64,000 nt of DNA from Idiomarina sp. (GTDB lineage Bacteria > Pseudomonadota > Gammaproteobacteria > Enterobacterales > Alteromonadaceae), in assembly GCF_048260185.1 (NCBI RefSeq), contig NZ_JBLXHB010000004.1, forward strand, positions 88,622 to 152,621, written 5' to 3'. Positions 3,582-29,683 of the stretch are shown here, piece after piece (position 1 is the first letter of the stretch; each line of letters begins with the position of its first letter). A program made the translations under genes and the position numbers. The notes beneath the pieces were generated by a model. It was not told where the DNA came from and did not search any database. It was given only the letters and a program-made list of their open reading frames with translations.

Positions 3582-4574
3582 TTAGTACAGATCCACGCTA
3601 TCGATTTCGCATTCCGCACTACTTATTTTTGCGCTCGTGACCTCTTGATAAGACCCAAATGAAAAGTTGAAATTAAGAGTTTCGCTATCACTATCGTGAG
3701 CATAGAGATCGTGAGACTCATCTCCATAACTTGAGTCTGATTGAGTTGAATACGTGTTTCTACCCTTATATTCAATCTCAACTGTGCACTCGACTTCAAC
3801 GTCTAGGTATGCACCGCCGCTATAATCGGTGTTTACTTCATAGTTAAGCGAAACGTCACAATCATTATAATAATTACCAGAATAGCTTTCGTTACAATCA
3901 ATATCGCCCCCAGTAATTTCAACACAAACTTCAGCGTTTGTTTTGTACTCTGTATCGCAGTCGTCACCACTTACGCCCTGAGCTCTTCGACGCTGCATTT
4001 CAGCAATAGCGGCTTTTTCCAACTCAATTTGCCTTTGAAGCTCTTGCTGTGTCATAGCCTTGCATGAGCTTCCAACTTTCTTGAAACCTCGATTACATTT
4101 CCAGCCACTACCATAAATGTCGATACTCGCGTTTTCGGGAACTTGAACTTTTACACATTTATTGCCGAACTTGTAATAGCCCCTATTGCACTTCCAGCCA
4201 CTGCCGTAAACATCAATCCCCGCGTTTTCAGGAACTTGAACCTTTACACAGGTATTGCCTGATTTGTAATAGCCCCTATTGCACTTCCAGCCACTACCGT
4301 AAACATCAATGCCTGCGTTTTTAGGGACTTGAACCTCTACACAGGTGTTGCCTGATTTGTAATAGCCCCTATTACACTTCCAGCCACTGCCGTAAACATC
4401 AAGACCAGCATTTTCTGGTATTTGAACTTTTTCGCATTTATTGCCTGACTTGTAATATCCTCGATCACACTTCCAACCACTGCCGTATGGATTCTCTGAA
4501 GCATGCTCTGGAAGACTTTGAGACCAGGATAGAGACGCGAAGCACATGCAAAAAATTATTAATAATATTCTCAT
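3582..4574 (-). CDS. secreted Cys-rich tandem-repeat protein
   Basis: 330 aa with a signal peptide (MRILLIIFCMCFASLSWSQS). Carries about 4.7 tandem 31-aa repeats, YGSGWKCNRGYYKSGNxCVKVQVPENAGIDV, with 2 Cys each. A coiled-coil-like segment and an acidic Cys-containing C-terminal domain follow. Confidence 0.7.
   Translation of the reverse strand: MRILLIIFCMCFASLSWSQSLPEHASENPYGSGWKCDRGYYKSGNKCEKVQIPENAGLDVYGSGWKCNRGYYKSGNTCVEVQVPKNAGIDVYGSGWKCNRGYYKSGNTCVKVQVPENAGIDVYGSGWKCNRGYYKFGNKCVKVQVPENASIDIYGSGWKCNRGFKKVGSSCKAMTQQELQRQIELEKAAIAEMQRRRAQGVSGDDCDTEYKTNAEVCVEITGGDIDCNESYSGNYYNDCDVSLNYEVNTDYSGGAYLDVEVECTVEIEYKGRNTYSTQSDSSYGDESHDLYAHDSDSETLNFNFSFGSYQEVTSAKISSAECEIDSVDLY
4053..4487 (-). repeat. 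tandem 93-bp coding repeats (about 4.7 copies)
   Basis: CCACTGCCGTAAACATCAA-type strings recur with a 93-bp period (for example near 4199, 4292 and 4385). This matches the 31-aa protein repeat. Confidence 0.85.
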
Positions 4575-4689: not shown

Positions 4690-5286
4690 TCACTTATTAG
4701 GATTAAAACCAAGAACACCGATAAGAAAGCTATCGTTTAACTCACGATGAATACGGGAAACTTCATTATGAATTTTTTGTCCTTTAAGCTCTGCAATTGG
4801 CTTTTGTTTTAATAGGAAATCCATCACTTCAAACATATCTTTTAAGCAGGTTTTGTTTGAAATAAGCTTTGTCTTTTTGAAGTTATATATTTCCATATTT
4901 ATAGAAATAGGCAGCGCAGCAATTTGCAAATTTTTCTTTAAGAGCTCACTAGCGCCAGGAGAATTAAGAATGGAACATACAGTTTTATAGACACTTTCTA
5001 AGTTGTTTAAATATACATCAGCATCTTTTTCGGCTTTAAACTTGGAATCGCCCTCAACTTCTTCGAGGTTATCTTGCGTTACAAGAGCCTTAGTTGCGAA
5101 ATAGTATTGCATTACCGCAACAAACAACCTCTTTGTAGCCTCTCCGTACCTATTCCCGATAGTTAACTTAGCCGTTAAATAGGCAACTATTAGTGAAGCG
5201 ATGATTGAAGCTAAGACTGACAAATTAAATGCTTCCAATGATGAATTCTCCTGTGAATATAACATTTGTATATTGTGCGTGCGCAT
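4690..5286 (-). CDS. hypothetical protein with N-terminal transmembrane helix
   Basis: 198-aa ORF with the TM segment LSVLASIIASLIVAYLTA. The first 7 codons overlap a conserved non-coding block, so the start is more likely the second Met at 5265. Confidence 0.5.
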   Translation of the reverse strand: MRTHNIQMLYSQENSSLEAFNLSVLASIIASLIVAYLTAKLTIGNRYGEATKRLFVAVMQYYFATKALVTQDNLEEVEGDSKFKAEKDADVYLNNLESVYKTVCSILNSPGASELLKKNLQIAALPISINMEIYNFKKTKLISNKTCLKDMFEVMDFLLKQKPIAELKGQKIHNEVSRIHRELNDSFLIGVLGFNPNK

Positions 5287-5650
5287 TTAGAAGCTCGTCC
5301 AATTGCTAGTCTTCTGTTCTTGACTTACTGATCAAGCAAGCATTCCTGATTTGAAAGGTTCCGAGCTAGAAAAGGCAATTTGAGCATGCTCAGTTACACT
5401 CTATAGGGCTCACAATATCCAACCTTTATTTTTGTTATGTTATTGACATTAAACGACTTAAATACACAATACAACAAAGTGCGCAATATTTCCGAAGTGA
5501 AGTTGCCGTGTATCGCTAGCGACATCCACTCTTACTAATAACGGGACGTCTAGTCACTAGTTGGAGTAAGCTGAAAGTCAGAAGGTCTGTTTCTCGCTCG
5601 TTGCTGAACTTCGGTTTCGTGCCAACAGCGGACGTTGAGCTTCTCTTTCG
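5261..5650 (-). repeat. copy A of a ~470-nt conserved non-coding module; interrupted by IS3 and continuing at 6909-6950
   Basis: Block-wise homology to 9586-10050. Shared strings include TTTG(T/A)ATATTGTGCGTG, T(T/A)ATTGACA(T/C)TAAACGAC(T/C)TAAATAC, TGCCGT..ATCG.TAGC.ACAT and GTTGCTGAACTTCGGTTTCGTGCCAA. Stop codons occur in all frames. Confidence 0.7.
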
Positions 5651-5697
5651 TAGATTCCAATTTGGAATGCCCCCAGTATCATTGACACCCTGACGCC

Positions 5698-6504
5698 TCA
5701 AAATGAGGCTTGCTCAAACTGCTCGGGGCTGATGCCACCGAGGTGACTATGTCGCCGTTTCCGGTTGTAGAATACTTCAATGTAATCAAAAATGTCAGCT
5801 CGCGCTAATTCTCGCGTTTTATAGACCCGTTTTTTAACCCGCTCTTTCTTTAAACTACTAAAGAAAGACTCTGCAACGGCGTTATCCCAACAGTTAGCCC
5901 GACGACTCATGCTGGGCTCTAAGTTATTAGACTTACAAAACCGGAACCAATCATCGCTTCCGTATTGTGACCCCTGATCAGAATGCACTAATACTGAGGA
6001 GGTCGGTTTTCGACGCCACACAGCCATCAACAGAGCGTCTAGAACAATTTCTTTAGCGAGACTAGGCTTCATCGACCATCCAACAATATTACGGGCGTAA
6101 AGATCCATGACAACCGCAAGAAAAAGCCAGCCCTGCCAAGTCCGGATATAGGTAATATCAGTTACCCAGGCTTGATTAGGTCGTGCCACGGTGAATTCCC
6201 GCTGTAATAGGTTAGGAGTCACAATAGCTGGCCGGCCGGCTCCGTATCGAAATCTCTTATATCCCCTTGAGGCCTTGATATTATGTGCATTCATAATTTT
6301 TAAAACACGATTTTTACCAACCGACTCGCCGAGCTCGCACAAATCCAAATGAATGCGCCGATAGCCGTAAACACCGCAACTGGCGCTATGCGAATCTTTT
6401 ATTAAGGGGAGCAACCGACGATCTTCCAAGGCACGATCAGATAACGGTTTATCGATCCAGAAATAGAAACCTGCACGCGCAACCTCAAGAACTCGACACA
6501 TCAA
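5698..6504 (-). CDS. IS3-family transposase OrfB (DDE/rve), expressed as an OrfAB fusion by -1 frameshift
   Basis: The -1 frame continues from the slippery site as KKGRKVLCKPARVKYQFINEHRRIHSIALMCRVLEV..., so the OrfB frame is open upstream of the listed Met. An rve-type DDE core is present (WVTDITYI...HSDQGSQY...ESFFSSLKKE). Confidence 0.85.
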   Translation of the reverse strand: MMCRVLEVARAGFYFWIDKPLSDRALEDRRLLPLIKDSHSASCGVYGYRRIHLDLCELGESVGKNRVLKIMNAHNIKASRGYKRFRYGAGRPAIVTPNLLQREFTVARPNQAWVTDITYIRTWQGWLFLAVVMDLYARNIVGWSMKPSLAKEIVLDALLMAVWRRKPTSSVLVHSDQGSQYGSDDWFRFCKSNNLEPSMSRRANCWDNAVAESFFSSLKKERVKKRVYKTRELARADIFDYIEVFYNRKRRHSHLGGISPEQFEQASF

Positions 6505-6548
6505 AGCAATCGAATGAATGCGCCGATGCTCATTGATGAACTGGTACT

Positions 6549-6854
6549 TTACTCTGGCTGGCTTGCAAAGTACCTTGCGGCCTTTTTTAGAATGTCCCGC
6601 TCTTCCTCAGTACGTTTTAGGTCTGAACGTAGTTTCAGTATTTCTTTTTTAGCCTCTATCAGTTCATCGTCCTTTTGCTTGGAGGGGGTCGGGTTGGCTG
6701 CTTTTACCCACTTATAGAGACTGTGTTGAGATACCCCCAAGTTCGCAGAAACTTCAGCAACGGTGTACCCTCGTTCTATCACTTGACGGACTGCTTCATC
6801 CTTAAATTCTGGACTGTATCGTTGGTTGTTCATAAACTTTCCTCCTATGCTCAA
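6549..6854 (-). CDS. IS3-family transposase OrfA (HTH)
   Basis: 101 aa. YSPEFKDEAVRQVIERGYTVAEVSANLGVSQHSLYKWVK is a typical IS3 OrfA HTH. A leucine-zipper-like C-terminus ends at the frameshift window. Confidence 0.85.
   Translation of the reverse strand: MSIGGKFMNNQRYSPEFKDEAVRQVIERGYTVAEVSANLGVSQHSLYKWVKAANPTPSKQKDDELIEAKKEILKLRSDLKRTEEERDILKKAARYFASQPE
6582..6588 (-). promoter_or_regulatory. programmed -1 ribosomal frameshift heptamer A_AAA_AAG
   Basis: On the gene strand the orfA frame reads ...ATT CTA AAA AAG GCC.... The canonical IS3-family slippery heptamer is in the correct phase. Confidence 0.7.
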
Positions 6855-7045
6855 ATAATAGTCAGGAATTGTCTATGATTCTCGGTCCACTCCAATTGGA
6901 ATGGTTCAGTGTCTAGTAAACTAGTACCGACTCAGTTAATCTTGACAGCCTAGACTATGAGCATAACAAGAGCTGTATAGTTAATTGGAAAAATAGGACG
7001 CAAGTTTTCATTCAGTGGGTATTAAATACTAAAGGATTTATAGAC

Positions 7046-7405
7046 ATGCTATGCCATCAAACTAAACCTTTTATCTTAAATTTTGCAACCAAGCGAGAAC
7101 TCTCACAGTCTCCGGAAATTGGTGGTTTTTACTCGGAACAAGCTGATATGTGGTTCGATGCAGAGTCCATGATGCCGGCAATTGATTCATTAGCGTTCAA
7201 CAGTGCGGAGCTAAATACAAAGACGAAAGTCGATGTTGAGAGAGACGATGAAAGTCCATACGCCCTCGAAATGATGACTAAGACCAAGGTGCATGAAGAG
7301 AGTGACGATACCGATTTAAGATCCTGCATCTTGAATAGTTTACTAACGAAAACTGACGTGGCGCAAGAAAAGGACGATAACTCGATGAGTCCTTATGACC
7401 TATGA
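7046..7405 (+). CDS. putative graspetide (omega-ester/amide RiPP) precursor with three core repeats
   Basis: 119 aa. The leader contains KPFILNF, resembling the microviridin-type PFFARFL recognition motif. Three repeats are present: TKTKVDVERDDES, TKTKVHEESDDTD and TKTDVAQEKDDNS (nt 7217-7384). They are rich in Thr/Lys donors and Asp/Glu acceptors. The stop overlaps the ATP-grasp start (ATGA). Confidence 0.6.
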   Translation: MLCHQTKPFILNFATKRELSQSPEIGGFYSEQADMWFDAESMMPAIDSLAFNSAELNTKTKVDVERDDESPYALEMMTKTKVHEESDDTDLRSCILNSLLTKTDVAQEKDDNSMSPYDL

Positions 7406-8349
7406 TTCTTTTGGTCACGAATAAGAGGGATATTACGACCGACTATATTGTCCGTGAATTGCGTAAAAGAGAAGTCGACTACTATCGGTTAAATACAGAG
7501 TCATTAGCGAATTACGAATGCTCTATTGGCTATGAAAACATGGATGATTGGCGGATTGGGTACATTAACGGCAGCCAGGTTCAATCTGCCTATTTTCGAA
7601 GACCTTCCTCCCCTGAGTATACAAACTCATCAGAGACCAGTGAAAATGAATACATTGCATCAGAATGGTTGGCTTTTTTAAAAAGTATTTACGCTCGACT
7701 CGAAGGTAAGTGGTTCAACTCACCAGTATCGATAGCACTTGCAGAAGATAAGCCGAAGCAATTGCTCTTAGCGAAGGAAGCGCGCTTCAGAGTACCCAAC
7801 GGTTTAATTACTAACGTTGCTAACGATATTATTCAGAAAACAGGGAGCAATGGGCTTATCATTAAGCCTGTAAGGCAAGGTCTAATCGAAGGTAAAGATG
7901 ACAAGGTGATTTTTACCAGCAGAATCCCTGAAGTAAACACTGCACATGCTTCAGCTATTTCCCAGGTTCCCTCAATTTTTCAACAAGAAATCATTAAGAA
8001 GTTCGATGTAAGAGTTACTGTGGTTGGAAAGCAGATTTTTCCAGTCGCAATTTGGTCGCAGGATGCAGAGCAAACGAGAGTAGATTGGCGTAAAGGAGGG
8101 AGGATAGATTTGCGTCATCAAGTTATCGAACTACCGACAGGCGTAGCTGCATCATGTATTGAGCTAACATCAAAGTTAAATTTGAAGTTTGGCGCTATTG
8201 ACCTGATATGTGATCAAGAAGATAACTATTGGTTTTTGGAAATAAATCCAAACGGACAATGGGCGTGGATTGAGAATCAGACAAATTTACCCATCGCTTC
8301 TACAATCGTAGATGAGTTAGTTGCCTGTCGGAGAAAACATGAACTTTGA
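7402..8349 (+). CDS. ATP-grasp ligase, microviridin MdnB/MdnC-like (graspetide macrocyclase)
   Basis: 315 aa. The N-terminus MILLVTNKRDITTDYIVRELRKREVDYYRLNTE matches the MvdD/MdnC-type pre-ATP-grasp domain. The C-terminus GAIDLICDQEDNYWFLEINPNGQWAW is the ATP-grasp Mg/ATP-binding motif. Translationally coupled to the precursor. Confidence 0.75.
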   Translation: MILLVTNKRDITTDYIVRELRKREVDYYRLNTESLANYECSIGYENMDDWRIGYINGSQVQSAYFRRPSSPEYTNSSETSENEYIASEWLAFLKSIYARLEGKWFNSPVSIALAEDKPKQLLLAKEARFRVPNGLITNVANDIIQKTGSNGLIIKPVRQGLIEGKDDKVIFTSRIPEVNTAHASAISQVPSIFQQEIIKKFDVRVTVVGKQIFPVAIWSQDAEQTRVDWRKGGRIDLRHQVIELPTGVAASCIELTSKLNLKFGAIDLICDQEDNYWFLEINPNGQWAWIENQTNLPIASTIVDELVACRRKHEL

Positions 8350-8992
8350 TTTATTATGGCCAAGACTATCAGGTAAATCAGATGACGAATCATTAAAGAG
8401 AGATCTTGAATTAATAAAGAAAGCTGATCCCGGTGACTTTGTTGATGTCGCGCTAGGCGAAGCTCGGAGGCTTTACGATCAAGAGCAACAACGAAGGTCC
8501 TCTGCTGACAGTAAGGGTGGACTATATCTTGGTGTCGCTACAGCTTTCCTCGCGTCACTAATCACATTGTCTCCATTAGCAATCGATATTATTGGGAGAT
8601 CAGAATCTGGTCTGTATTCGGCACTGTCGTGGCTAATGGTTATAACGATGGGCATATCAGCTATTGTTGCGTTTCGTTGTATTCTCTGGGCAAAACACGC
8701 ATTGAAAGTAGCAGCCTTTCGAACTATGAGCTGGAGAGATTTACTCAATGTTGGTGATGAAAAAGTTGAGCTGACCTTATTTCGTGACACTCTGAAATGT
8801 CTGCGTCACAATTATGTGGCGACGAATGAGAAAGTGACGAATGTGAAAATGGCGGAAGCACTTTTAAAAAGTGCGTGGTTTTGGCTAATCCTAAGCCTTC
8901 TTGTAAGACTTTTTTATCACCTAATAGAGGGCAGCCCGAGTGGCTCTGAAACTATCATCAATGTAATTAGCATCTGTTCTGAGATGGCGTGA
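8339..8992 (+). CDS. hypothetical membrane protein, third gene of the ATP-grasp operon
   Basis: The ORF track starts at a TTG at 8321; the ATG at 8339 (MNFDLLWPRL...) overlaps the ATP-grasp stop by 11 nt. It has 3-4 TM helices (LYLGVATAFLASLITLSPLAI; WLMVITMGISAIVAFRCILWA; AWFWLILSLLVRLFY). Confidence 0.5.
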   Translation: MNFDLLWPRLSGKSDDESLKRDLELIKKADPGDFVDVALGEARRLYDQEQQRRSSADSKGGLYLGVATAFLASLITLSPLAIDIIGRSESGLYSALSWLMVITMGISAIVAFRCILWAKHALKVAAFRTMSWRDLLNVGDEKVELTLFRDTLKCLRHNYVATNEKVTNVKMAEALLKSAWFWLILSLLVRLFYHLIEGSPSGSETIINVISICSEMA

Positions 8993-9130
8993 ATGGACTT
9001 CCCAGATTTTGCTAGACAAATTTAACCTTTACAATGTAACTAAAATGAGAGGTGTTTATGAGAAAAGGAAAACGTTGCCTCGTCTAAATATACATACGTA
9101 CTTTTACTACGGTCCTTGTCAGTTGCTGAC

Positions 9131-9568
9131 TCAAGCTTCATTTTCAAACCACAAGTATCCTAAAAACCTTGTCGAATCGTTATGAATAGCAAGGAATAGT
9201 TCTGACGCCTCTTTCTCAATTTTTAACAAACGTTCGTCAAGAGAAGCAGCTTGCCATTCTTGATAACCATTGTGTGCATCTATACAGGATGCAATAGCTT
9301 TATGACTTAGGAAGTTTCGTTCATCTTTGAACTTGTTGAGGCGTTTAACCAACTCTTGATTATCGGAAAACTTCTTAAATTCAGTAATTAGCCTTTCGAG
9401 AGAGTGGTTTTGAAAATCGTCGCCGGACATTCCAAAGGGCATACGGTCACCCAGACGTTTTTTTATGAGGGCGACAGCGTGAGCTAAATAGAGCTTCAAC
9501 TCCATCTCTACCATCTGACATCCTGATAGCGCTCTCGAAACCTTGAGGAAAAACTCGTCTTGCTCCAT
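9131..9568 (-). CDS. HEPN-domain protein (paralog 1)
   Basis: 145 aa, all-helical pattern. Rx4H motif RNFLSH. Shares the block L(E)RL...F.K......EL..RLNK.+..RN...H with the 12505..12933 product. Confidence 0.55.
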   Translation of the reverse strand: MEQDEFFLKVSRALSGCQMVEMELKLYLAHAVALIKKRLGDRMPFGMSGDDFQNHSLERLITEFKKFSDNQELVKRLNKFKDERNFLSHKAIASCIDAHNGYQEWQAASLDERLLKIEKEASELFLAIHNDSTRFLGYLWFENEA

Positions 9569-9585
9569 ATGCCCTCTAAACAGCT

Positions 9586-10050
9586 AACCTTTGAATATTG
9601 TGCGTGTGTTCTTCGTAACTCGTTCCATTTTTAGTTGCCGCATATTAAGTTGCTGCTCAAATGAGCATTCTGAGAGGTTTTGAGTTAACAAAAATCAACA
9701 TGAGCAAGCTAGCTTACCTTTTAAGGGGCGTACAATACTAAATTTTAGTTTTTCTTTATGTAATTGACACTAAACGACCTAAATACGCAAAACAACAACA
9801 AAACGTGCAATGTTGATGAGGCAAGCGTGCCGTACATCGTTAGCAACATTCCCACTTAACAATAGCAGGCCGGTTAATCTCTAAATTGAAGTAGAAAAAA
9901 GTCTTAAAAAGGCTAATGATTCGCTCTTCGTTTGTTGCTGAACTTCGGTTTCGTGCCAAGAGAGGACTTTAAATTTTACTCTCCGCGCCTCCATCTGCGA
10001 CAACTCAGGCTTTAGAGAACTAGTGGCGATTCAGTCATATTAGTGAGCCC
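9586..10050 (-). repeat. copy B (uninterrupted) of the ~470-nt conserved non-coding module
   Basis: Homologous block-by-block to 5261-5650 + 6909-6950. It lies between the stop of 10084..10797 and the start of 9131..9568. Confidence 0.7.
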
Positions 10051-11322: not shown

Positions 11323-11895
11323 ATGTCAACCTCTATCATGTGCGGTGAACACAACTTTTCCTTTTATGTTAATTTTCTTATGAGCATTATGAATAAAGAG
11401 AGCATTTCAAGAATACTTGAAGCCTTCGCTTACATAGCGGAGCGCGCTCCTGCGCACAAGAAAAATATGTATAACGTGCTAAAGGTATTCTACCTTGCTG
11501 ATAAGCTCCATATGGAGCGTTATGGTCGCTTTATCTTTGATGAAAGTTACTCGGCAATGGAAAAAGGACCAGTTCCGTCAACAGCTTATGATCTGATTAA
11601 AAATATCGGAAAGGGTAAAGAGCTACCATTCTCAGTTGAGTCGCCAGTGAAGTTAGGTTCAAATTATATTGTTACTGCAAAAAGACAAGCAGATGAAGAT
11701 CTTTTTAGCGGTTCTGATCTGCTATGCATGGACGAAGTTATTCAGCTAAGTGAGAATGAAGATTTAGGTGACCTTAGTCACGACGAGGCATGGAAAAGGG
11801 CAGGACGCAATAACTTCATGCCTGTTGAAGCTATCCTATCAACGCTTCAAAATAGCAAAGCACTATTAGAGCTTCACCATAATAGACACCCTTGA
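11323..11895 (+). CDS. Panacea/DUF4065 (SocA-like) antitoxin-domain protein
   Basis: NVLKVFYLADKLHMERYGRFIFDESYSAMEKGPVPSTAYDLIKN matches the Panacea core pattern (KL.K..Y.AD..H....GR.I....Y.A...GPVP...Y). The likely true start is an internal Met at 11380 or 11389. Confidence 0.7.
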   Translation: MSTSIMCGEHNFSFYVNFLMSIMNKESISRILEAFAYIAERAPAHKKNMYNVLKVFYLADKLHMERYGRFIFDESYSAMEKGPVPSTAYDLIKNIGKGKELPFSVESPVKLGSNYIVTAKRQADEDLFSGSDLLCMDEVIQLSENEDLGDLSHDEAWKRAGRNNFMPVEAILSTLQNSKALLELHHNRHP

Positions 11896-11937
11896 TCGTA
11901 ATTAGGTGCCAGGGAAGAGTACGAGCAAGGGAAATAA

Positions 11938-13535: not shown

Positions 13536-13579
13536 GTTGTCACGGCTAATCCACGAAGCCACAGCGAACAAATAGGCAA

Positions 13580-13712
13580 TGATACTGGGGGCATTCCACT
13601 CCGTAACGCTTCTCGTACTCTACTGGTGATAGTAAATTATTGTAACCATGTTTTTGTTTGCTGTTATAAAACATCTCGATGTAATCGAAGATATGACTTT
13701 GGTAAGTAAGGT
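13580..13712 (-). pseudogene. IS3-family transposase C-terminal remnant plus IS end
   Basis: The reverse strand translates to ...SHIFDYIEMFYNSKQKHGYNNLLSPVEYEKRY.... This is homologous to the C-terminus of the intact OrfB ([29 protein letters not shown]). Stops lie immediately upstream, and it ends ...CCCCCAGTATCA. Confidence 0.7.
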
Positions 13713-13888: not shown

Positions 13889-16800
13889 TTATTTAACGTT
13901 AGCCTCAGTGGATAACCTGGGACGCAAATCAAGAAGATGTACATGAATATAGGTATCACTTCCCAGAGCCTGTTGAACTCTGTCAGACTCAGCAATAAGC
14001 AACGATAACAACTGATCTGCTTTGATCTTGTGTTTCTCAACTGGATGATGCCATTGGCGATCTTTCGTAAGAGTTATCAGCAAAGCTCCAGCCCTACAGT
14101 GTTCAGCCGCCATATATTTTCTGACCAATTGCCCTTCAATTGTATCTAGCAGCTCTTTCGCAGAGCGATTTGCATTACCCAGCTTGAGTTCAATCACAGC
14201 TTCATGTTTCGACAGAACAGAACGCAGACGTATATCGGTTTCCTTCTCGTCAGCCGTTACCGCCTCTTGGTCGACAGTGTAAAGTGAATTTGCGGCGCGC
14301 TTAAGTTCTCGCGCAATTACTCGACGCATTATCTTCTCATCTGATATTAACGCCCAAGCTTCTCTCGGTGAATCGTCGTGTAGTAAAAGTTCATCAAGAT
14401 CAGATAACCGATCCTTCAATAACGCAAACATGGCTTCATTCGTTGAAGCTGGAGCTTCACCAGTTCTATCAAGATCTACTGCTTGAGCTTCATCAAATGT
14501 ATCAGCATCGATCTCTAGTGCCCAATTCTCTGCTGCCACAGCCAAAATGCGATCCTTGAAATGAGCGCACAAAGGATCTGCAGCCATTTCTATCTTGGCG
14601 GCCAAGCCCTCATTTCCTCTCGCGTCAAGCAATGCGCTTACAATGCTATTGCGCGCCTGTTCTGCGTTGTCTCTAGTGTCGGGTGAATAGGACCCTTCGT
14701 GGTGCGCATCGTCCTGTATTCGAACGTGGCGATAGGCCAAACGAAGAAGCCTGAGCAGTAATTGCGGCGTTAATCGTTCGTCACGCAAACTAATTCCGTC
14801 TTGGTCATTCCCAAAGAGTTTGGCTAGCCATGTCACAGCGTCCGATCGCTTAGAAGGTTCAACTCTCTTAACTAGGTCAGTTAGCCGTTCGATCCCCTCC
14901 TGCGGTTCAATCTGCATTAAGGTGGACAACCAAACAAGGCGCATCGAAAACGGCAATTGTTGCTCCAACCTCTGGAGTGCCTGTTCTTGAAGTTTCTTAA
15001 TTTCCGCAGCATTGCCATGCTTAATGATAATCCGTGTGGCTTGCCGAACCCTTCCGGCCATTCCGCTAGTGTCATCGCCACCATTAATATCCTCCCCACC
15101 GTCATCTAGCCAGGACTCCAGTCGCGGTAAAAATAAACAGGCAACCCTTTCAGGCGCATATTCAACTACTTGAAGTAGATTCAAAGAGCCTTGTTCACTT
15201 GACGACCGGTTCAGCTGCCACGAAAACTCATTTCCAAGCGTCCTGTCCACAGCTTTTGGATGTGTGTCTACGAGGTCCTCGAGCCACTTAGGCAGGCCGT
15301 TTAGTTCAATTGGAGCGTAACGCGCGGCTAGCTCAGCTTCGGCATCGCTGAGTTTAGCTTCCCAGCCTGGGGCCTCCGCTTCAGCGTAGATCGCGGCCAG
15401 ACCAAGTTGCCAACGTACAAGAAATGTATTGCGCTCGCCTTCGGACCTTTCGCTGGGAAAAGTTGGATGGTCATCACGCCAGATCTTCATCAGCACCCGG
15501 CGAAGCTTGTCGGCCGTGTCTTGATTGAATTGCTCTTCAATGAATCGCCGGTTCCAGCCTGATGCTCTACTGTCTGCACCATCATGACTCATAGCGCGCC
15601 ACAAGTTCCAAGCTGTGTTCCAGCTTTGCTCCGTCGAAAATGCTTTTTCAGGCTGGTTGGCAACTTCTCGCCAGAACTGAATCCAGCTCGCGCGGCTCTT
15701 GGCCTTACGCCGCTCTTCCTGCTTCTTTTTTTCAGCCTGCTCCTTTTCCCAATGAAGATGCTCTTTTTCGTATTTCGATGGCTTCAGCCAGTCGTCAAGT
15801 CTTTGCACGAATGAAGGTTCATCCACTATGAGGGACCTAAGTCCCTCATAGTGTTTTCTCCTTGTATCACGATCCGGCGACAGACGGATGGCTGCCTCCA
15901 AGAGCATTGCGCGTTCATCCGCATCCCGGGTCGTGTCTCCAAGCGCTTCGCTCACCCAAGTCAGATCCCGGTCCGGTCTTAGCTGAACCGGTCCATCGTG
16001 GATAGTGAGTTCTGCGAGCCGTCTCCAAGGATCTTTGATTTCATGGAGCGACTGCAGCAAAGCGTCCTCAACCCAGAAAAGACGCTCATTGTCCTCTGCT
16101 TTCAGATTGATGAGCTGTTTGCGAAGTGATTTGATCGATTCGTCGTTATAATGGTCTTGGTGGTGTAATCGCAATGCGACTACACTAGCATGAAGCCACT
16201 GATCGTCTTGGCTTATATCCAAGCCGCGTTTACATGTTGCTGCGAGTGCTTCACTGAGATGTGCCCGATCACTGGTAATATGCGGCCACTCTTTTCGCCA
16301 TGTAAGCCCCTCTGAGACAAGCGCAAGGAAGCCGTTACGAAGTTCCTCAAGGTCAGGGAACTCAAGAGACGACCTTGCTATCAGAATTGGAAGTTGCCAA
16401 TTAAAGTCGCCTATATTTCGCTTCCCTTGCTTTATCCATCTAAGGGTCCGACAAAGCTGCTCAACCGACATGTACTTTGGAAAAAGGCGTAGTATGGCAC
16501 CGCATGCTACTCTATCAGGCCAGAGATAATCACCATCAGCTATACAGACAGAAATGCTTTCTAATCTCTCGTCAGCGAGTGCGACTAACGCGTCAATAGC
16601 CATTATACGTTCGACCGCAGTTGCTGAAATGTCCTGAGTTATATCGAATACGATATCTGCACAAGCTTCTATGCGACCAGCTTCTATAAGGCTGATGAGA
16701 ACTTCTCGCACATCCGGATTCTCTACCCCACAACGCCAAATCCTTTCAACTTCTTTTGCCAGCCCATTCGACGCAAATCGATGGACCTGAATGTGAGGAA

Positions 16801-18193
16801 CCTGAAGGCCTCTCCACCCACCAGGGCCGTAACGTTCAGCGTAGGCGTAAAGAGCTTGATTTCGCTGCGTCTGCGTTAACGACTCTGGATCGCCTTCATT
16901 TAGAAGTACAGCAGGCTCATGGTCCCGCAAGAGTTCAAATATCCCGTTTTCTTTCAAGGCTAACCATCCAGCGACTGGCCGCTTGGACGGCTTAACGATC
17001 ATTTTGCTTTTGGTCTCAGCGAAGATAATCCGCTTGAGGGCTCGAAACGGCATGCCATGTTTTCTAAGCGCTATTAGCCGCTCGGTAGCAAGATACTCCG
17101 CGACCGAACGATGATGAAAACGCACTCTGCCATATGAAGCGAAACCAAATAGCGGACGCTCCAGCAGTGCCTTTCGTTCGTTCGGTTGCCAATCGGATAG
17201 GATTACCGCGGGATCAAGAGCTGCCTCTTCGTTAATAGCATCGGACTCTGCACTATGACGAATAGTTAGACGACGTGTCATCTGAACTGCAAGCGCGAGT
17301 CGGCTAGCTCCCTCAATTGCCTTGTCGACAGACAATTCCGCTGGTTCAGGTCTGTATTCGCGAGGAAGTAACTTCACACGAACATTCGTATCGACCTGAT
17401 CGTGATGTGTTCGGATGCGTTTATGCTTACTCCAGTCTGCGCATAACTCAATAAGATCCTGAGGTCTGCGTGCAAACTCTAGGGCATTTCGACGTAGTAA
17501 GTCTTCAAAAAGAAGGTCAGGATGGCTCACTCCCTCATGCCGACAAAAATCGACTATCTGCTCGTCCGACAGCGGCATTAAGCCTACAGACCGCCAATCG
17601 GGCGATTCATTTGGGTTGCTATTGTTATGTTGCTCCCGATGCTCACGCATTGCGATCTTTGCAAATGCATCTTCATTGGATTCCGAAGACGGAGCTGGAG
17701 GAACAGGTAATACACTTCGGACCAGCTGTTCGTCGAAGGGGATTGGTCGTGACGTGATGACGATTCGCGCCCGGTGAAGTTGACCTCCAATACGCTTTTT
17801 CAGTCGCTTAAGCGCGCGTTCAAACGAACCCATCGTCAATTTTAGTTCATCAATCGAGTCCAAAAAAAATGTCGCTATTTCATACTGTGAGGCAAGCCAA
17901 GCATCCAAGCGGGCTTCTTCGTCTACATCTAACAGGCTGACAAGGTCTTCTGTTGCCAATGCGGCTAATTCAACGAAGAATGCAGGCTCTCCCTCATCCC
18001 AAAGGCGCTTTGACTGTTTACGGCATTCGTAGGTTTTTCCTGCCCCAGCCTCGGAAACTATCAGTATACGTTTTGACTGAAGCAAATCATCCCATGTATT
18101 TCCCCGTGACCAGCCCAATCCGACTAAAAAAGACTGTTCGTCGGCATCGGTGACCTTCCCTTCAGGAATATCATTGAAAATCCGTTCTACCAT
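13889..18193 (-). CDS. NACHT/STAND-type P-loop NTPase (1434 aa) with long helical C-terminal region and terminal PD-(D/E)xK-like motif
   Basis: Walker A VSEAGAGKTY, Walker B FFLDSIDEL and IVITSRP follow the NACHT order, starting ~45 aa from the N-terminus. About 900 aa of helix-rich sequence follow. Near the C-terminus, ETDIRL...AVIELKLG...QLVRKY gives a D...ExK...Q..Y arrangement. The gene is visibly more G+C-rich than its neighbours. Confidence 0.7.
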   Translation of the reverse strand: MVERIFNDIPEGKVTDADEQSFLVGLGWSRGNTWDDLLQSKRILIVSEAGAGKTYECRKQSKRLWDEGEPAFFVELAALATEDLVSLLDVDEEARLDAWLASQYEIATFFLDSIDELKLTMGSFERALKRLKKRIGGQLHRARIVITSRPIPFDEQLVRSVLPVPPAPSSESNEDAFAKIAMREHREQHNNSNPNESPDWRSVGLMPLSDEQIVDFCRHEGVSHPDLLFEDLLRRNALEFARRPQDLIELCADWSKHKRIRTHHDQVDTNVRVKLLPREYRPEPAELSVDKAIEGASRLALAVQMTRRLTIRHSAESDAINEEAALDPAVILSDWQPNERKALLERPLFGFASYGRVRFHHRSVAEYLATERLIALRKHGMPFRALKRIIFAETKSKMIVKPSKRPVAGWLALKENGIFELLRDHEPAVLLNEGDPESLTQTQRNQALYAYAERYGPGGWRGLQVPHIQVHRFASNGLAKEVERIWRCGVENPDVREVLISLIEAGRIEACADIVFDITQDISATAVERIMAIDALVALADERLESISVCIADGDYLWPDRVACGAILRLFPKYMSVEQLCRTLRWIKQGKRNIGDFNWQLPILIARSSLEFPDLEELRNGFLALVSEGLTWRKEWPHITSDRAHLSEALAATCKRGLDISQDDQWLHASVVALRLHHQDHYNDESIKSLRKQLINLKAEDNERLFWVEDALLQSLHEIKDPWRRLAELTIHDGPVQLRPDRDLTWVSEALGDTTRDADERAMLLEAAIRLSPDRDTRRKHYEGLRSLIVDEPSFVQRLDDWLKPSKYEKEHLHWEKEQAEKKKQEERRKAKSRASWIQFWREVANQPEKAFSTEQSWNTAWNLWRAMSHDGADSRASGWNRRFIEEQFNQDTADKLRRVLMKIWRDDHPTFPSERSEGERNTFLVRWQLGLAAIYAEAEAPGWEAKLSDAEAELAARYAPIELNGLPKWLEDLVDTHPKAVDRTLGNEFSWQLNRSSSEQGSLNLLQVVEYAPERVACLFLPRLESWLDDGGEDINGGDDTSGMAGRVRQATRIIIKHGNAAEIKKLQEQALQRLEQQLPFSMRLVWLSTLMQIEPQEGIERLTDLVKRVEPSKRSDAVTWLAKLFGNDQDGISLRDERLTPQLLLRLLRLAYRHVRIQDDAHHEGSYSPDTRDNAEQARNSIVSALLDARGNEGLAAKIEMAADPLCAHFKDRILAVAAENWALEIDADTFDEAQAVDLDRTGEAPASTNEAMFALLKDRLSDLDELLLHDDSPREAWALISDEKIMRRVIARELKRAANSLYTVDQEAVTADEKETDIRLRSVLSKHEAVIELKLGNANRSAKELLDTIEGQLVRKYMAAEHCRAGALLITLTKDRQWHHPVEKHKIKADQLLSLLIAESDRVQQALGSDTYIHVHLLDLRPRLSTEANVK

Positions 18194-19528: not shown

Positions 19529-20389
19529 TCACTCATACCCACCATCACAATACCATTCGCTCTGCGCTAGCGCCTGAAATAAGGCGGCTTTCCATGAGTT
19601 AGCATCCACACAGGCATACTTTTCGAACTGGTCTTGTAAATGTTGCTTGATATAGCCCCTGCCCATTTCGTTTTTATATTTGCTTAAAATACCTGTGAGG
19701 CAAGATAGCTCATCAGCTGCCTCTATACCGTATCTTTTTTCTAAAGAGTAGCTTTCAAAATGCGCTAGAACTCTCGCTTTGGAGACAGGGTCCCAATTTT
19801 CCGGTGGGTTAACGAAGTATCGAATGGACGGAGGGTCAGAGCGTGAAACCTCAGCATATAACCACTGTTCATTGATTATCTGATTGGATTCGAAATACGG
19901 GTGTAACGTTTGTGTTTCTGCAGATATAGCTACAATATCTCTTTTACCAGTGTTGCAGTCTTTACATGCGGGAACTAGATTTAGAGGAGTGACCGAAAAA
20001 ATGGGGTATTTTGATTTGGGTAGGTAGTGATCTAATGTGGACGCATAGCCTAGAGCACATAAAGGGCACCTACCGTTGGGAGCCTTGGATAGTATTTTGT
20101 CATAGACCTCTCTACCGGGTCTGTTGATTCGAGCTACCTGGTTTGAATAAAGCTCTTTTAGTTCTTCCTTGGTAACATTCCCTACAACTATGTCATTGTT
20201 ATCAGAGTTATCTGCTGGAATTCTGTATAGCTCTTTTACGCTACCTAGCTGGGCATAGTTATATGAAGCCTGTCCAATGCTTGGTGAAACTTCCTCAAGC
20301 CTGCCACAAAGTTGCTCATCTCGGTATCCACGAGCACATCTCTGGAAGAAAGCCTCAGCATTATCAACTGGCGGTATTATTGTTCTCAT
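19529..20389 (-). CDS. ptuB: HNH endonuclease, Septu PtuB-like
   Basis: CPLCALGYASTLDHYLPKSKYP...NLVPACKDCNTGK is a CxxC...DH...N...CxxCN HNH signature. It starts 6 nt after the ATPase gene ends. Confidence 0.65.
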   Translation of the reverse strand: MRTIIPPVDNAEAFFQRCARGYRDEQLCGRLEEVSPSIGQASYNYAQLGSVKELYRIPADNSDNNDIVVGNVTKEELKELYSNQVARINRPGREVYDKILSKAPNGRCPLCALGYASTLDHYLPKSKYPIFSVTPLNLVPACKDCNTGKRDIVAISAETQTLHPYFESNQIINEQWLYAEVSRSDPPSIRYFVNPPENWDPVSKARVLAHFESYSLEKRYGIEAADELSCLTGILSKYKNEMGRGYIKQHLQDQFEKYACVDANSWKAALFQALAQSEWYCDGGYE

Positions 20390-20395
20390 AATTTG

Positions 20396-21955
20396 CTAGT
20401 TTTTATCTCTACTGTTTATCAAGGAGCGGAGCAACGCTTTACCTTCAAACCCGATTTGTCCGTTGAACGAGGTCTCAATTTGCTCATACGACTGACCTTT
20501 CGATACTAGTGAATTAAATAGTTCTAAATATCCTGATTTAGAGACTTCTAGCCCGAAAACGTCTCTAGTTAAGCGACCAACATTCTCTGCGAAAGTTTCT
20601 ATCTCTGGTCGGGAAATATCAAATATGCCTCTCTTTCGCCTTATAACGGAAACACATAATTGCGGAACTTCTTGTAAGACTACAGGAGAATGCGTAGCGA
20701 CTATAGCGACGCCGTTTCTGTTTAAAAGTAAGTCTGATAACGCTCGTGTGAATGCGGACAAAAGTGGCGGATGCAAGTGACTTTCTGGCTCATCAAGAAA
20801 AACTATAGTTTTTTCTTCAACTGACTCAACGAGCTTAGTCATTGTAAGCAAGACTATTGAATGGCCAGAGCTCATTCGATGAAAAATAGAGTATGCTTGC
20901 TGGTTAAAGCGGGTACGATCTTGTTTGTATAAATCAACAAGTTGATTTAACTGCATCTCTTCAAAGTTTAAGTCCGACTCGAGTTTTTTTATTGCCTCTA
21001 ACCAGCGGGCCTCTTTAGCAGACAAGGATAAGCACCTATCTAGGCTAATAACGAAGTCGGAAGCTAGTTCATTTTTTGTTTTCAGGCTCCGCGTCTCTGC
21101 ATTGGAGTCTTTATTGGTTTTTTGAAGACCAATATATTTGTACCTCATGCCGCCCGAGGAGCTTTGCTGGTCCTCGGGCGGTTCGAAGGCGTCAAAAGCG
21201 CTAAAAGATACAGATACTACCCCGGCAAAATAATCCTCATCTAGTTTAGTTTCTAACGGAAGAAAGTTGCCATTACTATAAAATGCACCAGGAATCTTGG
21301 CCTCATCTTCCTCCCTAGCTAACAATGAACTGAGCATATTATTTATGAGCGTTGTCTTCCCCACACCATTTCGGCCGATTAATATATGAACGTTTGAGCT
21401 TGGCATTGACTTAGGTTCTACCTGAAAGGAGAGTTCGACTGCTGAAAAGCCCCCGCTAGCAGCTTGTTTATATGAGAAATCGTACTCACTCAAAGCTGCG
21501 TCGCCCTTAATAATTCTTTGGAACTGATTAGAGATCGTCGAATGGTTTACCATTCTCATTAAAGATGTATTAAATGAATCTTCACTTTCGACGTGTTTAA
21601 GTAATTCGGGGTAATAAATCACGTCTCTTAACGCGGTTAGGGTGTATTGAGCAAGCTCTTGAGGAACTTCCTCCATTAGAGCTTTGTAATAATCTGCGTC
21701 CTGGCCTAATGAAAAGAAACTCTCTGGAAGTTGCTCGAAATGGCTTTCGATGCTTTCTGCTGTTGCTCCTTCCTTTTGTCCAAAAAAGCCAATTTTCACA
21801 CTCCCTACGTCATATCGGTTTGACTCTGAGTCAAAGATAGTGAGTGAGAATAATGTCTTAAAACCGAAATCGTCCCAATTGTCAGCTTGCAAGATTATCT
21901 GGCTTTTCGCGTCGTTAGGTATAGAGGTGCGAGAATTTAGTTTTCGAATGTACAT
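20396..21955 (-). CDS. ptuA: ABC/AAA15-type ATPase, Septu PtuA-like
   Basis: 519 aa. Walker A LIGRNGVGKTTL, signature-like SSGHS, Walker B IVFLDEPESHLHP and a D-loop/H motif (VATHS). The ~190-aa N-terminal extension is as seen in the PtuA/OLD-like ATPase class. Confidence 0.65.
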   Translation of the reverse strand: MYIRKLNSRTSIPNDAKSQIILQADNWDDFGFKTLFSLTIFDSESNRYDVGSVKIGFFGQKEGATAESIESHFEQLPESFFSLGQDADYYKALMEEVPQELAQYTLTALRDVIYYPELLKHVESEDSFNTSLMRMVNHSTISNQFQRIIKGDAALSEYDFSYKQAASGGFSAVELSFQVEPKSMPSSNVHILIGRNGVGKTTLINNMLSSLLAREEDEAKIPGAFYSNGNFLPLETKLDEDYFAGVVSVSFSAFDAFEPPEDQQSSSGGMRYKYIGLQKTNKDSNAETRSLKTKNELASDFVISLDRCLSLSAKEARWLEAIKKLESDLNFEEMQLNQLVDLYKQDRTRFNQQAYSIFHRMSSGHSIVLLTMTKLVESVEEKTIVFLDEPESHLHPPLLSAFTRALSDLLLNRNGVAIVATHSPVVLQEVPQLCVSVIRRKRGIFDISRPEIETFAENVGRLTRDVFGLEVSKSGYLELFNSLVSKGQSYEQIETSFNGQIGFEGKALLRSLINSRDKN

Positions 21956-29678: not shown

Positions 29679-29683
29679 TTACC
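29679..29683. repeat. right copy of 5-bp target-site duplication TTACC
   Basis: Immediately follows the terminal ...CACA. Its last base is the first base of the (reverse-strand) yhiN stop codon at 29683-29685. Confidence 0.75.

Follow-up and report, generated by a model that had tools for sequence, protein, structure and literature searches.

A thuringinin-branch graspetide module carried by a Tn7-like transposon of Idiomarina, and candidate roles for its membrane partner

Three closely packed genes in Idiomarina sp. raise the question of which peptide product they encode and what a small membrane protein does beside it. The genes lie at 7046-8992 of the window, the 64-kb stretch of DNA that we analysed. 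We read them, with a probability of about 0.85, as an intact thuringinin-branch graspetide module with all three genes, belonging to group 5 in the numbering of Lee 2020. A first-pass annotation of the same DNA had proposed a graspetide-type RiPP operon here; the operon is real, every feature described was recovered, and both the ligase profiles and the coupled three-core precursor agree with that proposal.

The three-gene module and its precursor peptide

The operon and its parts are as follows.

7046-8992, + strand: three-gene graspetide operon of Idiomarina sp. (precursor, ATP-grasp ligase and membrane protein genes)
6896..8994, + strand: conserved three-gene module of 2.1 kb, common to other genomes (blastn)
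7046-7405, + strand: precursor gene (119 aa, 13.5 kDa, pI 4.3), a leader of about 55 aa followed by three core repeats
7064-7084, + strand: leader motif KPFILNF, of the Phhx(1,2)h type, conserved in homologues
7121-7153, + strand: second conserved leader block GGFYSEQADMW, consensus G-[FYH]-Y-x6-MW (homologue alignment)
7217-7249, + strand: core repeat 1, TKTKVDVERDD (homologue alignment, motif scan)
7277-7309, + strand: core repeat 2, TKTKVHEESDD (homologue alignment, motif scan)
7346-7378, + strand: core repeat 3, TKTDVAQEKDD (homologue alignment, motif scan)
7402-8349, + strand: ATP-grasp graspetide ligase gene, 315 aa (NCBIfam, Pfam, alignment with PDB relatives)
8339-8992, + strand: membrane partner gene, 217 aa, whose first 11 nt lie within the ligase gene
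8459-8521, + strand: conserved, predicted cytoplasmic motif of the membrane protein, EARRLYDQEQQRRSSADSKGG

By blastn, window positions 6891/6907-8994 match two other loci, L020 at 89% and L010 at 82%, and the homology ends 2 bp past the stop codon of the membrane protein gene; module copies in Pseudomonas and Stutzerimonas have a similar kind of boundary. No leader peptidase, ABC exporter or energy source for export is encoded within the three genes. Scanning all 64 kb with Rfam gave no match in the operon region, and a DNA search of a plasmid collection returned a short ligase fragment as its sole match. In 6896-7045, between an insertion sequence and the precursor gene, a simple scan found no convincing sigma-70-like promoter. 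Because an IS3-family element lies 150 bp upstream and no promoter was matched, we treat expression of the window copy as putative.

The stop codon of the precursor and the start codon of the ligase overlap in an ATGA at 7402-7405, the coupling to which the first-pass annotation had drawn attention. Its comparison of KPFILNF with the leader helix recognised by microviridin ligases also holds up, as the motif conforms to the Phhx(1,2)h class of leader motifs (PMC8939145) and is presumed to be the element that binds the ligase. In the second leader block, which also occurs in precursors from Vibrio, Pseudomonas and TARA, G27 is nearly invariant among homologous precursors, and Y29, S30, M35 and W36 are invariant. 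Downstream, the three spaced repeats pairing Thr/Lys with an acidic cluster are found as three TKTxVxxExDD cores: when the 64-kb window is translated in all six frames, the pattern [TS]x[TS]x4[ED]x[DE][DE] turns up three times, each time inside the precursor reading frame. A search for homologous precursors, suggested earlier as a check on the repeat, returned nine relatives at 70-92% identity in which the T, K, T, E, D and D of all three repeats are invariant. A wider set, 66 repeats taken from 21 precursors, keeps the same positions in 64 (T), 62 (K), 63 (T), 64 (E), 64 (D) and 65 (D) cases.

The precursor is under purifying selection, with a dN/dS of about 0.12 against four orthologues and of 0.04-0.12 for the core region in the three comparisons with computable dS. 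This constraint lies on the + strand, so that an antisense reading frame at 7129-7329, considered as a possible true gene, is ruled out and is explained as a by-product of the coding strand. An AF2 model of the precursor was largely disordered (pLDDT 55), as expected for a RiPP precursor, with only the GGFYSEQADMW block predicted to fold, into a small beta-hairpin; as a guide to ring pairing, for which the model was made, it was uninformative.

The ligase and its place among known graspetides

The ligase consists of a pre-ATP-grasp domain (residues ~1-107) and an ATP-grasp domain (~115-305), and its family is best read from the ranking of its profile matches. NCBIfam gives TIGR04187 at 1.7e-67, MvdC at 2.3e-49, MvdD at 3.1e-40 and RimK at 4.6e-13, and Pfam matches are to RimK and ATPgraspMvdD. 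The profile search that had been proposed thus places the graspetide maturase models far above RimK, in line with the assignment to the MdnC/MvdD type made from the letters alone. The protein stays short of all curated NCBIfam cutoffs (228 bits where 350 are required), so that no curated model covers its branch and its membership among graspetide maturases holds at the level of the clade. Its nearest solved relatives are the graspetide ligases MdnB (5ig8, 6e-30), AMdnB, MdnC and CdnC; 5ig9, also of the microviridin pathway, matches at 5e-28. Aligned over its full length with MdnB 5ig8, its FLEINPNGQW and VDWRKGG segments match FLEVNPGGEW and VDWRRPG, and the Mg/ATP motifs are aligned. It is 38% identical to an Arenibacter ligase of the gr_06 type and 53% identical to the copy in P. 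aeruginosa RW109; similarity to PsnB of group 2 is much weaker (3e-10).

These results leave next to no room for the reading that the enzyme is an amino-acid ligase of the RimK/glutathione-synthetase kind with an unrelated small reading frame upstream. The generic RimK ATP-grasp domain is the only Pfam domain above threshold in the protein, and some database records label its homologues rimK. Against this, TIGR04187 surpasses RimK by at least 50 orders of magnitude, and the small frame is kept beside homologous ligases in Gammaproteobacteria, Alphaproteobacteria, Bacteroidota and Leptospira. Together with the purifying selection on the small frame, the ligase profiles and the conserved precursor linkage refute that identity.

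The locus thus pairs a ligase of the MvdC/MvdD clade, complete with its pre-ATP-grasp domain, with an adjacent precursor made of a leader and a donor/acceptor core, as graspetide loci do. Assignment to group 5 follows from homology of the precursor, including the shared leader, from tandem TKTxxxxExDD repeats and from the architecture of the membrane protein. Loci of this group (for example in Vibrio F6 FF-238, V. anguillarum 96F and P. putida KT2440) carry the leader SKPFILNYATER...G.Y....MW that is also present in the window, three or four L-x-TKT-x4-E-x-DD repeats, and a single ATP-grasp ligase followed by a membrane protein of ~220 aa. The window precursor is 56% identical (E 2e-38) to that of Vibrio genomosp. 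F6 FF-238, an entry labelled Branch_Thuringinin, cluster13, gr_05 in the Makarova 2022 supplement. The supplement also lists near-identical precursors with three or four repeats, among them those of Vibrio, Pseudomonas putida KT2440, Caulobacter and Algoriphagus, and marks the cluster 13 precursors as found earlier by Iyer 2009 and Lee 2020. The first-pass annotation had matched the TKTKVxxExDD core to no known type, a view that this catalogue overturns: not only the core but also the precursor with several repeats and its membrane partner were on record, and the type of chemistry is ordinary. The Idiomarina clade itself (the window, L001 and P0001-P0009, 70-92% identity) does not appear in the part of that supplement that was searched. 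The chemical gain, of modest value, is one further clade, from Idiomarina and marine metagenomes, in a group that was catalogued between 2009 and 2022 and includes at least one characterised example.

Comparison with better-known families refines this placement. Thuringinin shares with the window a trivalent tandem-repeat precursor, one ligase for all links, a gene order that includes a small membrane protein, and probably a ligase in the same branch of Makarova's tree; each repeat of the trivalent thuringinin carries two esters (PMC12291112). Group 3 repeats, as listed in the supplement, read T..(.)T..IE..D.DE (for example TTVITDTIEQSDPDE), as opposed to TKT....E.DD in the window. The microviridin pathway (MdnA, MdnB, MdnC) has a common ligase fold and the same logic of a proline-plus-hydrophobic leader motif. 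It differs in having a pair of ligases and only one core, TxKxPSDx(E/D)(D/E), together with a GNAT acetyltransferase and an ABC transporter; the window module shows none of these. Group 5 also differs from thuringinin in the near-invariant Lys (62 of 66 repeats), which would allow a third, amide link. Lee et al. reportedly obtained tricyclic products for groups 4-6, in one case including an amide that a single ligase installs. Examples from groups 4-6 have been chemically characterised (10.1101/2021.05.19.444834; PMC13097080).

From the conserved residues we infer the following chemistry. Precursor and ligase would be made together through translational coupling at the ATGA overlap, and the ligase would dock on the leader through KPFILNF and the GFY..MW block. 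It would then use ATP to activate, as acyl phosphates, the carboxylate side chains of three residues per repeat, the invariant Glu and both Asp; the invariant Thr hydroxyls, and possibly the near-invariant Lys amine, would attack these. Each L-h-T-K-T-x-V-x-x-E-x-D-D unit would thereby close into a small multicyclic knot, giving a trivalent, very acidic macrocyclic peptide. Two esters would shift the mass of each repeat by -36 Da, or by -54 Da if the Lys amide forms as well; the three repeats together would account for -108 to -162 Da.

Transposon, insertion sequence and neighbourhoods

The module resides inside a transposon whose transposition genes, ends and target could be mapped, and in this the window copy differs from the group 5 loci named above.

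1965-29678 (unstranded): Tn7-like transposon, 27.7 kb, carrying the graspetide module as cargo
28722-29606: TnsA (Pfam Tn7_TnsA-like_N)
26618-28735: TnsB (matches Tn7 TnsB 7pik, 6.7e-46)
25184-26611: TnsC (Pfam AAA_22/TniB)
23574-25139: TnsD (Pfam TnsD+TniQ)
5663..6895, - strand: IS3-family insertion sequence adjoining the module upstream (orfA 6549-6854, orfB 5698-6504)
13889..18193, - strand: NACHT antiphage protein HyoA (NCBIfam NF058534, 1591 bits; cutoff 1200)
19529..21955, - strand: PDC-M01A/B, a PtuA-like ATPase with its partner, candidate defence pair (PADLOC 3e-205, 4e-98)

The tnsABCD genes stand in a row, and both ends of the element read TGTGAA(A/G)TGA(T/C)AAT.TAGTTTG, with repeated TnsB-type sites, AGTTTGCAC. 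The element is bounded by a 5-bp target-site duplication, TTACC, at 1960-1964 and 29679-29683, and abuts the stop codon of a yhiN/HI0933-like gene at 29683-30864. In its tnsABCD genes, TGT ends, 5-bp duplication, insertion at the 3' end of yhiN and defence-rich cargo, to which a Panacea antitoxin gene also belongs, it resembles Tn6230-type transposons. The main text of a survey of Tn7 cargo (PMC8649781) does not mention graspetide or other RiPP cargo.

The insertion sequence upstream of the module is tentatively assigned to the IS3 family from its two-ORF layout and its DDE-type orfB sequence; it is flanked by a 3-bp duplication, ATT, at 5660-5662 and 6896-6898, inside the palindrome TTCCAATTGGAA. 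Its end at 5663 recurs as a perfect 22-nt inverted copy at 13577-13598, which could have marked a composite transposon, but the flanks differ (ATT against CTC) and share no duplication, so we rejected this structure. An integron cassette was likewise set aside, as the module-flanking repeats, GTGCCA..AGCGGAC, misfit by inspection the R''/R' core pattern of attC.

Loci carrying the module elsewhere were picked by the length of their contigs, irrespective of gene content, and gave about ten contexts, a sample taken without a formal background. The module lies near Hachiman in L008/9 (HamA 1e-127, HamB 3e-301), near a KAP NTPase and a CAP12 TIR protein in L012/13, and near SIR2 and Gabija in P. 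aeruginosa (L047-49). In Stutzerimonas and Pseudomonas (L050, L053, L056) a Gabija-like pair lies 50-70 nt downstream, and pair and module travel together in a single 5-kb block; in L054 restriction-modification, GmrSD and HEPN genes are close by. Further copies are found on a megaplasmid and on a phage-plasmid, whereas three contexts (L006/7, L010/11 and L052) contain no defence genes. Residence in mobile or defence regions is thus usual for the module. Of the first-pass reading of its surroundings, the part that made it cargo of a Tn7-like element stands, with ends and duplication mapped, and the part that called such a location unusual falls. The repeated landing of this 2.1-kb module beside defence genes in unrelated genomes appears to be new.

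The membrane partner and its possible roles

The third gene most likely starts at ATG 8339, which is preceded by GGAG at 8330-8333 and yields the MNFDLLWP N-terminus common to all homologues; the mechanical start of the open reading frame is TTG 8321. Three long hydrophobic helices (residues 59-87, 91-119 and 171-197) are predicted, in keeping with the 3-4 transmembrane segments first proposed, and the conserved soluble motifs, in which Arg and Lys are abundant, probably lie on the cytoplasmic side. In the loci found through the membrane protein (L020-L046), the ligase gene lies directly upstream in every locus with room upstream, and wherever sequence extends further, a multi-repeat precursor is present. 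The family HMM extends this to Arenibacter, where it detects the partner in the gr_06 locus (2e-8), and to Leptospira phage LE1 (3e-23). The first-pass annotation had regarded this protein as atypical of such clusters. Rather, by architecture and family HMM it appears to be of the 'cluster 18' type of Makarova 2022, a set of membrane proteins described as confined to thuringinin loci, for which a transport function was put forward (PMC8939145). Foldseek searches of its model against the PDB returned generic helical bundles only, and a Pfam scan of ten long or diverse family members found no domains.

A resemblance to defence effectors emerged from the PADLOC models. Within the membrane family, 10 of 12 close members and 34 of 91 diverse ones match PycTM models (best 8.8e-8), and among 5027 models the other matches are to CBASS '2TM' effectors and one stray CorA-like model. 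The matches are weak and family-wide and cover a pre-transmembrane motif together with TM1-TM2; for the window protein, residues 50-116 align with model positions 13-78 at E 0.007. Precomputed Pfam data list PF18967 (PycTM) in 14 of 65 relatives, graded weak or faint. A typical Pycsar system joins a transmembrane protein to a cyclase (PMC13069673). The window protein lies below the family threshold of PF18967/PycTM, and the three-gene module encodes neither a pyrimidine cyclase nor a cyclic-nucleotide-binding domain. We conclude that the protein is not a Pycsar member, and at most a distant relative of the PycTM membrane module. These weak but specific matches appear to be new, as none were found in the literature searched.

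We prefer a role in export. The co-translated three-helix protein would be an obligate partner that oligomerises into a pore and releases the modified peptide from the cytoplasm. The pore is the least certain step of this scheme, and we infer it from the gene linkage and the literature proposal. The three genes together are a compact, mobile 2.1-kb unit, here the cargo of a yhiN-targeting Tn7-like transposon.

The profile matches and the neighbourhoods also suggest, as a testable lead, that thuringinin-branch modules serve in conflict, as an anti-phage or abortive-infection-like system in place of a secreted natural-product pathway. The PycTM-like protein may then be a pore-forming or membrane-permeabilising effector related to those of Pycsar and CBASS 2TM systems, which keep comparable genomic company in defence islands, and an intracellular multivalent peptide could hold or trigger it in the manner of an antitoxin or ligand; alternatively, the modified peptide could itself be the antiviral agent, for example an intracellular inhibitor of a phage protease. 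The proximity of HyoA, PDC-M01, Hachiman, Gabija, SIR2, TIR and restriction-modification genes, the copies on a megaplasmid and a phage-plasmid, and a RiPP precedent all point this way. In that precedent, the lanthiphages, class I lanthipeptide clusters are enriched in defence islands and were shown to protect against phage (10.1101/2024.06.26.600839); they differ in chemistry and host phylum, and their anti-phage role is experimental where that of the graspetide module is a suggestion. We nevertheless hold such a role to be possible but doubtful. The homology to PycTM is remote, the current Pfam release gives membrane-family proteins no PF18967 match and only a weak one to PF24838 ('8xMP'), and the module has no recognisable sensor in addition to lacking a cyclase and a nucleotide-binding domain. 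Three contexts are free of defence genes, bacteriocin-like and other accessory genes also gather in variable islands, and a literature search returned nothing that links ATP-grasp genes or graspetides to PycTM or phage defence. If true, the module would be the first immune system built on a graspetide and would explain what the membrane gene of thuringinin-type clusters does; graspetides would then join lanthipeptides as RiPPs of anti-phage defence. A PycTM-like partner and defence neighbourhoods make the native role of the module approachable by experiment.

A different part for the membrane protein, as a membrane scaffold or chaperone for the ligase or as a self-immunity protein, strikes us as rather improbable. 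It would suit the linkage to the ligase in every informative locus, the gene overlap with its probable co-translation, and the Arg/Lys-rich motifs on the probable cytoplasmic side. Graspetide ligases that depend on a partner protein are documented (PMC13097080), and a membrane protein, the transporter, is reported to act as a scaffold in microviridin biosynthesis (Weiz 2011, as listed in PMC8939145). According to the literature, however, thuringinin and plesiocin are apparently made by precursor and ligase alone, a single ATP-grasp enzyme making all linkages (PMC8939145), so that the membrane protein would be dispensable for catalysis, at least in vitro.

The precursor, its ligase and their catalogued family

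The operon consists of three plus-strand genes, laid out with their motifs as follows:

7046-7405, + strand: precursor ORF, 119 aa; its end overlaps the start of the ligase gene as ATGA
7064-7084, + strand: leader motif KPFILNF
7217-7249, + strand: core repeat 1, TKTKVDVERDD
7277-7309, + strand: core repeat 2, TKTKVHEESDD
7346-7378, + strand: core repeat 3, TKTDVAQEKDD
7402-8349, + strand: ATP-grasp ligase, 315 aa
8339-8992, + strand: membrane partner, 217 aa (mechanical ORF start, TTG 8321)

In a six-frame translation of all 64 kb, the pattern [TS]x[TS]x4[ED]x[DE][DE] occurs three times, each time within the precursor ORF. All nine precursor homologues (70-92% identity) keep the T, K, T, E, D and D of all three repeats, and dN/dS is low, both for the whole precursor (~0.12 against four orthologues) and for its core (0.04-0.12 in the three comparisons with a computable dS). 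Together, the confinement of the motif, the retention of its residues and the low dN/dS demonstrate that the repeat pattern is not a product of chance. Across 66 repeats from 21 precursors the logo reads L-h-T-K-T-x-V-x-x-E-x-D-D, with near-invariant T (64/66), K (62/66), T (63/66), E (64/66), D (64/66) and D (65/66). Each repeat thus offers three nucleophiles and as many carboxylates, all of them conserved, which would leave room for two esters, or for two esters and one amide; thuringinin carries two esters per repeat (PMC12291112). The precursor is acidic (pI 4.3, 13.5 kDa), and an AF2 model predicts it to be disordered, the one exception being a small hairpin where the leader carries its conserved GFY..MW block.

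Among NCBIfam models, the ligase scores best with graspetide maturases (TIGR04187, 1.7e-67; MvdC, 2.3e-49; MvdD, 3.1e-40) and reaches just 4.6e-13 with RimK. Every one of these scores falls under its curated cutoff, placing the ligase on a branch that has no curated model. The nearest solved structures are the microviridin-type ligases MdnB, AMdnB, MdnC and CdnC, and the alignment to MdnB runs over the full length with the nucleotide and Mg motifs in register. A RimK-type enzyme is therefore ruled out, both by the wide gap in scores and by the MdnB alignment.

Precursors of the same design are numerous in the supplements of Makarova et al. 2022 (PMC8939145). The entry for Vibrio genomosp. F6 FF-238, ...SKPFILNYATER...GHYCDTEHMW...LLTKTNVQVESDD..MQTKTKVEVERDD..LLTKTDVIQESDDNS, is 56% identical to the precursor described here (E 2e-38), and similar ones are listed for Pseudomonas putida KT2440, Caulobacter, Alicycliphilus and Algoriphagus (PMC8939145). 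In Table S1 of that study the Vibrio loci fall under Branch_Thuringinin, cluster13, gr_05, and Iyer 2009 and Lee 2020 are credited with having reported them earlier; the study's cluster 13 joins groups 3, 5 and 6, which have a common leader. We accordingly assign the operon to group 5 of the thuringinin branch, with a probability of roughly 0.85.

The first-pass annotation had described a graspetide operon with this ORF placement, a KPFILNF leader and three repeats, and had proposed to search for homologous precursors and to profile the ligase. All of these elements are present as described, and with the catalogued relatives, the conserved repeats and the maturase matches the identification holds. 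Its case for novelty had three grounds, namely an unfamiliar core motif, an atypical third gene and an unusual location, and these fail. Makarova et al. 2022 had already catalogued both the repeat design, in Vibrio, Pseudomonas putida and others, and a set of uncharacterised membrane proteins ('cluster 18') that is specific to thuringinin loci and may serve transport (PMC8939145). The operon is thus real and correctly identified, and its family is already catalogued and partly characterised. What remains of interest is the PycTM-like membrane partner and the company of defence islands.

The operon most likely follows the standard graspetide route: the leader would guide the ligase, which would spend ATP on activating the side chains of Glu and Asp, and Thr, perhaps also Lys, would capture the activated carboxylates within each of the three repeats. 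The end product would be a trivalent macrocyclic peptide. The sequences establish what the genes are, that they are linked, conserved and mobile; the chemistry, the ring pattern and the membrane step are inferred.

The membrane partner

All homologues of the third protein share the N-terminus MNFDLLWP. This places the start at ATG 8339, with GGAG ahead of it at 8330-8333, and yields a product of 217 aa and an 11-nt overlap with the ligase gene; an annotated Idiomarina sp. protein is identical to this product. No Pfam or NCBIfam family matched the protein. Its AF2 model (pLDDT 77) comprises three long helices (32-87, 91-121 and 143-197), with hydrophobic stretches at residues 59-87, 91-119 and 171-197, and a search of the PDB with this model returned nothing specific. 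At E <= 1e-3, the family counts 593 representatives among 1.84 billion cluster representatives. Three members of 320-400 aa (P0087, P0177 and P0187) have collagen-like Gly-X-Y repeats (PF01391) beyond the last helix, which suggests that the C-terminus of such members is extracytoplasmic and oligomerising. Further long members (P0043, P0046, P0063 and others) bear C-terminal extensions without a detectable domain.

With PADLOC models, the membrane protein itself matches PycTM weakly (E 0.007, residues 50-116 on model positions 13-78). Across the family the likeness is consistent: PycTM models are matched by 10 of 12 close family members (best 8.8e-8) and by 34 of 91 diverse ones, and the only other matches among 5027 models are to CBASS 2TM effectors, plus a single stray CorA-like match. 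A precomputed PF18967 (PycTM) match is present in 14 of 65 relatives, whereas the current Pfam release gives weak matches to PF24838 ('8xMP') and nothing else. We take these similarities to reflect remotely homologous membrane modules. They do not make the operon a Pycsar system, since, unlike Pycsar, it has neither a cyclase nor a nucleotide-binding domain.

For the role of the protein we prefer export or release of the peptide via an oligomeric pore, a function that would fit the transport proposed for cluster 18. The PycTM and 2TM likeness, together with the defence genes that surround many copies of the module, would speak for a defence-type effector, a role that we regard as less likely. 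A scaffold or immunity role, which the tight linkage to the ligase would allow, seems less probable still. Our literature search returned no paper tying ATP-grasp genes or graspetides to PycTM or phage defence; lanthiphages provide a precedent for a RiPP family in defence islands (10.1101/2024.06.26.600839).

Linkage and neighbours in other genomes

The same three genes are found in Idiomarina piscisalsi (L001), with a ligase 84% identical, and in Arenibacter hampyeongensis (L002), with a ligase 38% identical, a 179-aa membrane protein and a 111-aa precursor with three T.T.V..ES.DSD repeats. In L001 the ligase is split by an apparent frameshift into overlapping ORFs (574-789 and 734-1516, spanning 574-1516), reflecting either a sequencing error or decay of that copy. 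With a family HMM, the membrane partner is also recovered from Arenibacter (2e-8) and from the Leptospira phage-plasmid LE1 (3e-23). Starting from the membrane protein, we scanned metagenome and viral contigs and recovered 27 loci; the ligase lies immediately upstream of the membrane gene in every locus with room upstream, and a precursor with two to four repeats precedes the ligase wherever the sequence extends further. By blastn, the unit common to other genomes is 6896-8994, which in L010/L011 is placed after gcvTHP. A P. aeruginosa megaplasmid carries a copy as well, as does LE1.

Neighbourhoods were compared at loci selected solely for the length of their contigs. Hachiman lies directly downstream of the module on two TARA contigs (HamA 1e-127, HamB 3e-301), a KAP NTPase and a CAP12 TIR protein flank it in L012/13, and SIR2 and Gabija do so in P. 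aeruginosa. In S. stutzeri, S. kunmingensis and Pseudomonas sp. BIGb0408, a Gabija-like pair (an OLD-TOPRIM ATPase and a UvrD-like protein) follows at 50-70 nt, forming with the module a co-oriented five-gene block of 5 kb with 80-86% identity and differing flanks (L050 8408-13383, L053, L056). Restriction-modification, GmrSD and HEPN genes adjoin it in L054, and a caspase-like protease and integrases in L055. In three contexts (L006/7, L010/11 and L052) no defence genes were seen.

The Tn7-like transposon and its cargo

The first-pass claim that the module is cargo of a Tn7-like element is confirmed: a complete transposon, with tnsABCD, both ends and the flanking duplication, maps around it.

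1960-1964 and 29679-29683: flanking duplication TTACC
from 1965: left end, TGTGAAGTGACAATATAGTTTGTACA
5663-6895: putative IS3-family element, target duplication ATT, directly upstream of the module and 150 bp ahead of the operon
11323-11895, + strand: SocA/Panacea-domain antitoxin gene
13889-18193, - strand: HyoA (NACHT antiphage), 1434 aa
19529-21955, - strand: PDC-M01A (PtuA-like ATPase, 3e-205) and PDC-M01B (4e-98), by PADLOC
23574-25139: TnsD
25184-26611: TnsC
26618-28735: TnsB (Tn7 TnsB 7pik, 6.7e-46)
28722-29606: TnsA
inward from 29678: right end, TGTGAAATGATAATTTAGTTTGCACGC

The element has inserted right against a yhiN/HI0933-like gene, at its stop codon, which is where members of the Tn6230 family have been documented to insert (PMC10121019). 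The HyoA match is full-length in NCBIfam (1591 bits, cutoff 1200); Pfam, PADLOC and the PDB gave no match. The PDC-M01A/B pair is a candidate defence system that neighbours the tns genes, and the ORFs adjoining the pair (18545-19363 and 22221-23372) belong to no family. A 156-aa ORF without a family follows the antitoxin gene and is presumably the toxin of the pair (11323-12408, + strand). At 3582-4574 (- strand), a 330-aa ORF of four in-frame 93-nt tandem repeats (4087-4551) encodes a cysteine-rich protein weakly matching an MSP1 EGF domain (Pfam 2e-10).

A perfect 22-nt inverted copy (13577-13598) of the IS3-family terminal repeat at 5663-5684 stands by itself, lacking both a neighbouring transposase gene and a corresponding target duplication, and may be a remnant of a second IS copy. 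A non-coding element of ~400 nt (68-77% identity; no conserved ORF, no Rfam match) is present twice, at 5253-5662 and 9578-9990, just upstream of minus-strand genes 4690-5286 and 9131-9568, and a third time in I. piscisalsi (L001 6170-6560); one copy has the IS3-family element inserted at its margin. A 29-48-nt repeat resembling AGTGTCTAGTAAACTAGTACCGACTCAGT lies at the module's left edge (6908-6936) and at 9989-10036 and 22112-22159 (inverted). The hairpin-capable motif GTGCCA(A/G)(C/G)AG(C/A)GGAC(C/G/T)TT (1902-1929, inverted; 2052-2079; 2947-2974; 5609-5636; 9943-9970), found inside and just outside the transposon, may be a REP-like element; on inspection its core pattern does not fit attC. 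Outside the transposon, a gammaproteobacterial-type L31 ribosomal-protein leader (47779-47829, - strand; Rfam RF03157, 54.8 bits) is consistent with a chromosome of gammaproteobacterial (Idiomarina) origin.
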